Source: Anolis carolinensis (taxonomy: Eukaryota). From it: a stretch of DNA of 64,000 nt. The translations under genes and the position numbers were made by a program. The number at the start of each line of letters is the position of its first letter. The stretch's first letter is position 1. Location: the NCBI RefSeq assembly GCF_035594765.1, contig NC_085845.1, forward strand, positions 191,162,897-191,226,896, given 5' to 3'. A model generated the notes under the pieces. It searched no databases. It had not been told where the DNA came from and saw only the letters and a program-made list of their open reading frames with translations. Positions 44,670 to 46,809 of this stretch are shown here, in pieces.

Positions 44670-46372
44670 TGTAGTAATAAAACAATTAATGTTCCATCTC
44701 CCAGGGGTTTGATTTGCATTGTCCCATGGTTGTGGGAGATGGCACCTGTTTGCATTTTTTCCAGGGTTGCTGTAGACTCAGCAGCAATCTGACAGTTAGC
44801 CATTAGCTGAGAATTGTAACCATTCTGCAAGGCCTTTGCTGCTGAAAGCTTGCAAAGTATCCTTTTGTTCTTGAGACCGCCCCTTTTCCTGGGGATGAAA
44901 TCTCCATTTTGAAAAGCCATTTTGCCTTTTACAGAAGAGAAAAGAACTCAGTTGTGCTTGTGTGGTCAAGCTAGGCCAGTTCAGACAAGCCATCGTAAGT
45001 ACTGACCTCTTGCCTATAAAACTGGTGCTGATGTGACGCCTCTAAGCTGCGAGAGCACTGGGAACCAGACACGGAGGCCAATAAACAATCTAATATCTTT
45101 ATTAAAGAAATAAAGGAGTCAAACAAAAATAAGCAGAGTATTTAGTCCAGCAATAGACCTTTTAGGAAAGGTCAAATATAGTCCAGTAATGTGAAGTTAG
45201 ATGTCCAGTATTAGAGTTCAAAGTTTTAAATCCAATAACCGAAACACACTCAAACTTCCAAGCAGTTTGAGTGGGGAAATAAGCAAGGTCTTATTTCCCA
45301 GGTTCAATGTCCGAGGCTAGGATAACAAGGCAAGGCAAAGTTGGTAGTGGTGGAACTGAATCGCAGTCCAGACTTGGCAGGGAGACGAGATGCAACACCC
45401 GGTCTACTCGAGAGTAGCGGGCCACAGGAACTGGAGGCGATGTTGGTTTCCCAACTGACACGTTGACACCGCGATGGCCAGCCTGCGCGTAGAACTTTTA
45501 TGGGACTTCAAATCTCCCCTCAAACCAGGTGCCTGAACACTTTTTCCCAAGGGAAATGGACTGAAGACAACAACTTGCCAGATGCAAACCTCCCTGGAAA
45601 CTCTCAAGGGAATCGGATTAATTAGCGTCCTCTCTCTCCGCTAATCTCGCGCTTTTCCTCCTATTCTCCTTCTCAGAGCGGAATGTTTTCAGAAACAATC
45701 TCCTATCAAAAGGAGCACTCTCCGGGAAACCAGGCTCTGTTTCAAGGGCTTTTGTAATTAACTTTGGGCTAAAACTGTCAACAGGGAACATCTGGAAGGG
45801 AGCAGAATCTTGCTGAGTTGGCACAAACCCCATATCCTCTTCAGTCTGATCCATAATGGCTGCGGGGTCATGACTCGAGGGTCCCTGAGACATCACAGCT
45901 GAGTTCAGATAGGGGAAAACCTGCTCTTTCCAAGATAGTAACTTAGCACTGGGGCAAAGAATATCCCAGGATTTCTTTGCCATTGGAAGAAGCTCTAATT
46001 ACTTCGTCTCCAAGCTTGCTTTGAGCTTAGATAGTGAAAGACCTGCTCTTTTTGATATATCAGCTCAGGGCTAGGGTAGAGAGGATCTCAGGATCTCTTC
46101 ACCTTTGGAAGAACTTAACCCAGCAACTAAGGGGAAAAGCAAGAAAGGAACATCTGCAAAGTTTTATAAGTTGACTATTTGTATTTGTAACCTCAACAAT
46201 TTGTGCCAAGTCTGCCAAGGACTTTGAGAAAATAAAATTTTGTTTGATTGTTCAATTTGAAGTGACTCTGGTTACTGGGATTCCTGAGGTTCCAAGTAAG
46301 GCCCCCGCAGTTCACCCGGGCAAAGAAAGAAGCACATCTTAAAGCTCTAAAAGGTGCCTGGGTGTGACGACA
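44670..46372 (+). mobile_element. Older LTR-like element hosting a younger solo LTR
   Basis: Termini TGTAGT / ACGACA, TATAAAA at about 45015, AATAAA at about 46230; about 830 bp once the insert is removed; TSD only partial (CAAGT/TAATT). Confidence 0.45.
45032..45897 (-). mobile_element. Solo LTR (Gypsy/Ty3-like), 866 bp
   Basis: TGTGA...TCACA termini; perfect 5-bp TSD GCTGA (45027-45031, 45898-45902); reverse AATAAA near 45098; intact 92-codon frame from LTR nt 2 (45896-45618). Confidence 0.92.
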
Positions 46373-46809
46373 TAATTAAACCTTGGAAACTGTAGCAATC
46401 TGATGTTCTGTTTGTTGTATTGGAGATTTGCACACAGCCCTTTCCTTATGTCTGGGGCCAAAACTACCAAAACTGGAGAATTAGCACCTTTGTCTTCTAC
46501 ATGGAAATGAGCTATAGAAACTGGAAATGGGGCCAGGCTCTGAGATCTAGCACCCTATACCTAGGTGAACACTGTGAAGGTGGCCTACATGAAATGGTCA
46601 TGGAACCATGAAATGAATGCATCTGTTGCACAATGGCTAAATTACACATTTGGGAGAATGTGTATGCATGTGTGACACCATCTGGGTCTGACCATAGATT
46701 TACTTGGAAGGATTCTTGAAATGTCAGTTAACCATACCAGTTGCCAGTGCAATATATATACTGCTACATCACCTGCCTAGGTTGGCCATCCAGTCCGTAG
46801 GAGTTGAAA

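Follow-up and report, generated by a model that had tools for sequence, protein, structure and literature searches.

Can a solitary LTR in a lizard genome carry protein-coding sequence, and if so, what would the encoded peptide do? This question was raised by a sequence-only reading of 64,000 nucleotides of the Anolis carolinensis genome (hereafter, the window), which singled out a solo LTR with an intact 92-residue frame on its minus strand, opening at LTR nucleotide 2 and ending in an HMGN-like RRKSARL motif. In this study, we found that the frame is a real and constrained integrase tail, encoded in the LTR of a known type of element. Translation and the LTR boundaries agree with the frame as first described (Table 1): its C-terminal end reads ...FRSEKENRRKSARLAEREDAN* (also written ...ENRRKSARLAEREDAN), the stop lies at LTR nt 280, and ATGs occur in frame at LTR nt 5, 44 (GCCATTATGG), 65 and 107. 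Position 45897 is the T that precedes the frame, and a translation begun there gives stops. The acidic, proline-rich N-terminal part and the basic C-terminal end were also recognized; net charge is -7 over residues 1-55 and +4 over the last 30. Searches of Pfam, PDB sequences and proteins with the 92-residue tail alone returned no match. The frame is not a product of chance, because it is intact in 23 of the 30 best genomic copies, the R[RK]SxR[LI] pattern appears in at most 0.06% of shuffles for each of 10 tails, and the stop falls seven residues past the motif in families that are only 22-77% identical.

Table 1. Features of the solo LTR and of the frame that it encodes, in window coordinates.
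Feature	Position	Strand	Basis
Solo LTR of a Gypsy chromovirus, TGTGATG...CGTCACA	45032..45897	minus	866 bp, TG...CA ends and genomic matches
Target-site duplication TCAGC, 5' copy	45898..45902	minus	flank of LTR; empty-site joint with 5 shared bases
Target-site duplication TCAGC, 3' copy	45027..45031	minus	flank of LTR
AATAAA polyadenylation signal	45098..45103	minus	71 nt before LTR end
TATA-like box CATAAAAG	45495..45502	minus	LTR nt 396; same site 28-30 nt before self-priming site in 5 whole elements
Predicted transcript start / self-priming segment GCGGTGTCAAC	45462..45472	minus	LTR nt 426-436; complementary to sequence after 5' LTR in relatives
92-codon frame and stop in U3, C-terminal extension of Pol/integrase beyond the chromodomain	45618..45896	minus	in frame with chromodomain through PPT in relatives
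Spacer (residues 1-64), acidic and rich in proline, no secondary structure predicted, length varying between families	45705..45896	minus	family alignment and structure prediction
Residues 65-91, predicted basic helix with conserved R65, R73, R80, R84	45624..45704	minus	AlphaFold2 and conservation
Motif R80-K81-S82-A83-R84-L85-A86, HMGN/Dsup/Dot5-like	45639..45659	minus	translation and variants among copies

The solo state of the LTR is shown by the 5-bp target duplication on both sides. In contigs of four public runs, which are of uncertain kind and mute on transcription, position 45026 is joined to 45898 with a 5-base overlap, as in an empty site of the surrounding repeat. A multi-copy repeat of about 880 bp encloses the LTR (window 44672-46421); the contigs include its LTR-free form, and one run also joins across the whole repeat. 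Searching the genome (1.85 Gb) with the LTR gave 3219 candidates, and the 40 that were scored are all 92-100% identical. Among the 30 best copies that were fetched, a set that includes the window copy and four copies with common flanks, the 5-bp duplication is exact in 22 and carries one mismatch in six; the other two copies are truncated, and internal sequence was found in none of the 30. Exact LTR start patterns retrieved 80 copies of the window's subfamily and 124 of a second subfamily, and no same-strand LTR pair at element distance was present among the 80 and the 100 (of 124) matches listed. An inverted-repeat element, considered because of head-to-head LTR pairs 1-5 kb apart, was rejected: the three pairs examined are independent insertions with unrelated DNA between them. 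Six LTR copies with long open frames upstream were confirmed as LTR matches only. Four solo copies on C18 and C19 (L016, L024, L026, L027) share identical flanks and the duplication ACGTC, and have thus been copied within a larger duplicated segment.

The frame had been interpreted as the tail of Pol/integrase, read through the PPT into U3. We consider this almost certainly correct, as the read-through is present in related elements that retain internal sequence. One of these is L147, one of 11 matches to a purine-tract pattern, which has a truncated 3' end and keeps a short internal piece consisting of the chromodomain end, GGGGGGAGATAG and then the LTR. Here the chromodomain end leads into ...GGDS/VMSQGP (the slash marks the LTR border) in one frame, which is that of LTR base 2. 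A search with the L147 junction gave 150 scored matches, and all 30 loci fetched from them have the chromodomain, the linker, the G-D-S residues and the LTR frame. More importantly, pol is in frame with LTR nt 2 in two full-length elements, relatives rather than members of the window's own subfamily. One of them, L187, is whole, with LTRs that are 99.1% identical and the duplication TGACC, and has a Gag frame followed by a -1-shifted frame of 1365 aa. The other, L191, also whole and with matching LTRs and a 5-bp duplication, has a single frame of 1566 aa. According to Pfam, both Pol ORFs comprise PR, RT, RH, IN, SH3 and Chromo domains, and both stop inside the 3' LTR, with the C-terminal ends ...RRSARIAARQLAD (L187) and ...RRSMRIAAKQMAD (L191). 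The remainder of the 15 longer stretches fetched comprises whole but broken elements (L188, L184, L185) and partial or nested ones.

In the nearest relatives with internal sequence (7 of 17 pattern matches, with LTRs 74-83% identical to that of the window), the PPT ends in the G-D-S/V frame in all seven, and the chromodomain end is in frame in five. For the window's own subfamily, the purine-tract pattern searches yielded solo copies, L147 and these 74-83% relatives, and no PPT-linked copy above 83% identity. Because no internal region was found for this subfamily, we infer its read-through from relatives on all sides; it would have had the same tail as the related whole elements. UniRef Pol models of Anolis carolinensis also contain the tail, without comment. 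Two other sources were tried and rejected. In 30 BEL loci, Pol (with a DUF5641 end) stops before unrelated LTRs, and neither the LTR nor the frame is matched, which speaks against a BEL/Pao origin. A Gypsy family with a 1596-aa product has a short unrelated LTR and a Pol stop before the PPT. This young and abundant family, which lacks a chromodomain (L114, L120, L121; e.g. G000:C1:192408246 onward), displays a splice-acceptor-like run, TTGTGTTTAATCTTTTCCTTCCAG, directly after the Pol stop and just before the PPT, and this run may feed a spliced product into the short LTR.

The element is a vertebrate chromovirus of the Tf1/sushi type of Gypsy elements, the solo LTR itself being classed through its relatives. 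In L187 and L191, Pfam places the PR-RT-RH-IN order after a Ty3-type Gag and PF00385 above cut-off at the integrase C-terminus. The aromatic cage positions of this chromodomain, read from the sequences, are F, W and F/Y, as in group I, defined in passages of PMC3605345. The complement between the PBS and the transcript 5' end measures 10-11 nt in four of five whole elements and 8 nt in the fifth. This self-priming site lies 28-30 nt past the TATA-like box, and the two complementary partners change together between families. Tf1 is described as priming itself in this way, and self-priming has been implicated across a range from fungi to vertebrates (PMC4600332). Hence, the self-priming complement and the domain set together identify a Tf1/sushi-type chromovirus. 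The likeness to vertebrate Tf1/sushi elements, for which the UniRef entries 'Gypsy retrotransposon integrase-like protein 1' of Anolis carolinensis, Oryzias melastigma and Labeo rohita served as comparators, extends to the Gag with CCHC, the PR-RT-RH-IN-SH3-Chromo series, the 5-bp duplication, self-priming and an AATAAA near the LTR end. The anole clade differs in adding an LTR-encoded tail of 84-97 residues with an R[RK]SxR[LI] end. The comparison with the plant CRM clade made in the sequence-only reading holds for one trait only. Pol does read into the 3' LTR, a feature described for CRM group A and for certain further plant chromoviruses (PMC3059260, PMC3605345), but this is a shared trait and not membership. 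The anole clade is Tf1/sushi: its group I chromodomain is retained ahead of the PPT, whereas in CRM group A a CR motif takes the place of the chromodomain. The tail therefore extends the chromodomain instead of substituting for it in the CRM manner.

Judged from sequence comparisons, the tail is under constraint between families, the frame and the motif being kept while the spacer diverges. The fetched loci contain 115 LTR starts, of which 72 copies chosen for an intact motif were grouped into 10 tail clusters sharing 22-77% identity. A dN/dS analysis across families, as proposed for this frame, gave 0.16-0.63 in 37 of 45 pairs and saturated synonymous sites in the other 8, values that indicate constraint between families and are lowered by the choice of the set for the motif and by the protein-guided alignment. 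The LTR is also regulatory DNA in its U3, and the conserved codons could accordingly reflect constraint on a promoter or enhancer, the open frame being merely a tolerated read-through. The third-position excess is modest, as this explanation would have it, and is missing among the shared variants of the window's subfamily. However, DNA-only alignments to three subfamilies contain no net indel in the 276-nt tail versus 10, 16 and 18 in the other 586 nt, and where tails differ in length at all, they do so by entire codons, whereas indels abound in the remainder of the LTR. Moreover, third positions account for 40-46% of the differences in the tail versus 29-33% in the rest in four comparisons (21/52, 25/56, 30/70 and 32/69 versus 24/77, 39/127, 35/119 and 47/143), although these tests are weak singly (p = 0.18, 0.05, 0.06 and 0.02) and not independent. 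Families that retain the motif are nearly saturated at synonymous sites, and the distance from motif to stop is constant. The indel, dN/dS and third-position results largely refute the explanation by DNA-level constraint already, and we regard it as extremely improbable.

The motif is also preserved at the level of whole junctions. Among 58 distinct chromodomain-PPT junctions, selected by a chromodomain pattern, 39 lead into an open tail with the R[RK]SxR[LI] end (16 RRSARIA, 15 RRSLRIA and 8 others), 7 into an open but different one and 9 into a truncated or shifted one, and 3 are broken earlier. In five families, the integrases are 86-95% identical versus 40-82% for the tails. Residues F63, R65 and R73, outside the HMGN-like motif, are conserved too, R73 being absent from some rows of one alignment. 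In a tree of 27 rows with a midpoint root and one long-branch warning outside the groups of interest, all tailed families group together (100/100). Two lineages of the anole genome fall outside this clade: a second chromovirus lineage (L247-L257, L261, L273), which has a chromodomain but ends Pol at the PPT, with no tail, and a lineage that lacks both chromodomain and tail. The tail is thus dispensable for this kind of element. These tail-less lineages of the same genome are natural controls, for instance in comparisons of insertion sites. In more distant LTR families (L068:2500-3700, L119:331-621, L014/L039), we observed an acidic frame ending F-x-R-R...R-x-S-x-R-L-A, which extends the clan beyond the ten clusters.

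What the basic end does is a separate question. On balance we lean towards the view that, as its sequence suggests, the R-x-S-x-R-L/I end tethers the integration complex to the H2A-H2B acidic patch of the nucleosome. Passages of PMC12487698 describe how HMGN proteins bind this patch through RRSARLSA, with R23 and R26 as the main contacts of HMGN2, and how, in the Dsup segment RRSSRLTS, R363 and R367 are buried, R364 is loose and S365 is hydrogen-bonded. Yeast Dot5 binds it through RRSARIAT (PMC13347269, in part). Outside HMGN such motifs are described in few proteins, with Dsup and Dot5 as the cases in the portions of the literature covered (PMC12487698, PMC13347269, PMC12480509). In the anole tails, R80, S82 and R84 are conserved, as is a hydrophobic residue at 85, and position 81 is variable (R, K, Q). 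This agrees with the Dsup register, in which the first and fifth arginines are buried, the second is loose and the serine is bonded. The window's motif has the arginines at 1 and 5, the serine at 3 and the hydrophobic residue at 6 of Dsup and Dot5, and the commonest sister variant, RRSARIA (16 of 39), is the motif of Dot5. As in HMGN, Dsup and Dot5, the R-x-S-x-R-L/I stands within a largely unstructured protein. Unlike in those proteins, it stands at the end of a transposon integrase and in a predicted helical context, whereas prolines precede the Dsup segment (PPRRSSRLT; PMC12487698). The octapeptide RRSARLSA itself is not found: the window has RKSARLAE, matching at 5 of 8 positions in register; K81 stands in for HMGN2 R23 and an alanine for an HMGN serine, and sisters have RRSARLAA and RRSARIAA. 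The tail is thus not an HMGN protein. S82 presumably fits an Aurora-type R-x-S site. A release of nucleosomes through phosphorylation of the HMGN serine is proposed in PMC12487698.

The motif is short (five or six residues) and arginine-rich. RRSxR-like strings may also occur at the integrase ends of other LTR elements. With an alignment of 9 rows, AlphaFold2 predicted no structure for residues 1-64 and a confident helix for 65-91, the pLDDT lying at 85-95 in the ten-residue blocks of 61-90, the first block excepted. The predicted complex of residues 56-92 with anole H2A/H2B scored an uninformative 0.01; AlphaFold 3 also fails on the HMGN2-nucleosome complex, according to a passage of PMC12487698. 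As modelled, the helical context, together with the conserved F63, R65 and R73, is an argument against a simple transfer of the HMGN model. It would also suit a different function, in which the tail belongs to the integrase and ends in a helix whose arginine face contacts DNA (target, linker or the element's own cDNA) or another acidic partner, the likeness to HMGN being incidental. R65, R73, R80 and R84 are spaced by 8, 7 and 4 residues, roughly along one face of the predicted helix, and a Rhineura element combines an acidic read-through tail with another basic end, ...RQKRGRPVSLRPKR. Yet conservation extends to the serine two residues ahead of the last arginine and to the L/I that follows this arginine, and K replaces R only at position 81, while simple DNA binding would be expected to allow more K/R exchange. 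A helix can also bind the acidic patch, as the C-terminal helix of SMARCB1 does. We judge a DNA-binding helix unlikely.

The basic cluster at the extreme C-terminus might instead be a nuclear localization signal of the integrase or of the pre-integration complex. The classical importin-alpha signal has the pattern K[KR]x[KR], and none of the 10 representative tails contains such a run; several families have RRSxR alone, with no lysine nearby. These points make the proposal rather improbable, even if the integrases of both retroviruses and LTR retrotransposons are described as carrying localization signals (PMC3605345).

In the tether that we favour, the tail would stay on the mature integrase, the chromodomain with its aromatic cage residues would read a methyl-lysine of a histone tail, and the arginine anchor would hold the nucleosome face, with the acidic spacer supplying reach. 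The putative task, in which a short arginine anchor links the acidic patch to an integration complex or an incoming genome, resembles that of the foamy virus Gag CBS, KSHV LANA and CMV IE1, whose acidic-patch tethering is treated in parts of the viral-tether review PMC9040877. Those anchors differ in sequence and reside on Gag or nuclear antigens, not on an integrase, and in the same parts of the review retrotransposons go unmentioned.

The sequence-only reading had further suggested that solo LTRs scatter micro-ORFs for a chromatin-binding peptide across the genome. The data do not support this idea. The stop of the frame (LTR nt 280) precedes the TATA-like box (396) and the predicted start (around 426). 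Transcripts from the promoter of the LTR itself would therefore lack the frame, and only host transcription could include it. In the window's subfamily, singleton changes are spread evenly over codon positions (28/29/32), and the variants common to at least three copies (20/21/25) lack a third-position excess, a point against strong recent selection. As to disruption among copies, the frame is indeed open in 37 of 48 close copies, but this 77% is not above the 83-96% expected neutrally from stops alone, with 2-8 private changes per copy. The pooled dN/dS against the window copy is 0.38 in 35 open copies, which are not independent. From these sequence counts, the frame of solo copies is presumably a passenger that decays neutrally after insertion, and the lone window copy has probably never been made into protein.

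A possible exception is that solo LTRs provide the host with a micro-protein, or with a ready-made last exon carrying a chromatin tether, and that some copies are so used. Besides the open frames of the close copies, the ATG at LTR nt 44 is in good context, and a pyrimidine-rich AG lies just before the window copy. In addition, the RefSeq model XP_062826559.1 splices a host exon into the tail of a sister-family solo LTR that lies 173 kb further downstream. In this model, a GT donor is joined to an AG acceptor 22 nt ahead of the LTR, and the predicted 166-aa protein continues in the tail frame to its end, ...RRSARIAAKHSAD (loci L278 and L288; G000:C2:125116356 and C2:125289738). However, XP_062826559.1 is a predicted model, and a Pfam scan of 106 of the 115 window frames of at least 80 aa gave no match pointing to a nearby host exon. 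The position of the frame upstream of the TATA-like box and start, the neutral level of open copies and the unbiased singleton changes also count against host use. We consider it very improbable for solo LTRs in general, and host use of the window copy in particular is very doubtful. Several ATP13A5 gene models (P0005, P0160-P0162; UniRef A0A803T411 and relatives) also end in a sister LTR tail; the RefSeq model of the gene does not, and these models are likely an annotation artefact.

Altogether, we propose tentatively, as a possibility that we rate somewhat short of probable, that a clade of anole chromoviruses made the first third of its LTR protein-coding and evolved there an HMGN-type arginine anchor, independently of HMGN, Dsup and Dot5. 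Its integrase would be a two-handed nucleosome reader, combining a methyl-lysine chromodomain with an acidic-patch anchor on a long acidic arm, and its solo LTRs would be a store of nucleosome-binding last exons, occasionally spliced into host transcripts. If true, this would be the first two-handed nucleosome reader among LTR retrotransposon integrases within the literature searched, and would bear on how LTR retrotransposons, vertebrate chromoviruses in particular, choose chromatin. If the tail binds, the HMGN motif would have arisen convergently in new coding sequence overprinted on an LTR. The conservation of the motif across fast-diverging transposon families, together with the tail-less controls, makes the idea testable. 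Within the full-text literature searched, which included PMC3601003 and PMC3105402, we found no description of a retrotransposon integrase with an HMGN-like motif, nor any of the anole tail; the read-through may already be noted in subscription papers or in Repbase.

Beyond the anole, a profile of chromodomain and tail matched 6205 of 1.84 billion representatives, and a pattern search of the best 150 of these found the motif, after the chromodomain or alone, in a single one, an Anolis model. The tail-only profile (7988 candidates scored) retrieved at least 13 longer proteins, all named Anolis carolinensis. In Rhineura, Podarcis and Salvator, the G-D-S/G-V-M junction is read through into acidic tails, and the records examined lack the motif; the Rhineura tail ends in a different basic cluster, and the Podarcis and Salvator models may end too early. 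A Pol model of medaka (Oryzias melastigma) runs about 20 residues past a G-G-Y-V junction. Given the models of these four lineages, the read-through itself looks old, while the RRSxR end looks anole-specific on present data. In Rhineura floridana (XP_061449381.1, P0021), the LTR-encoded tail of the chromovirus terminates in KRGRP, reminiscent of an AT-hook, which suggests different chromatin-binding ends in different squamate lineages.
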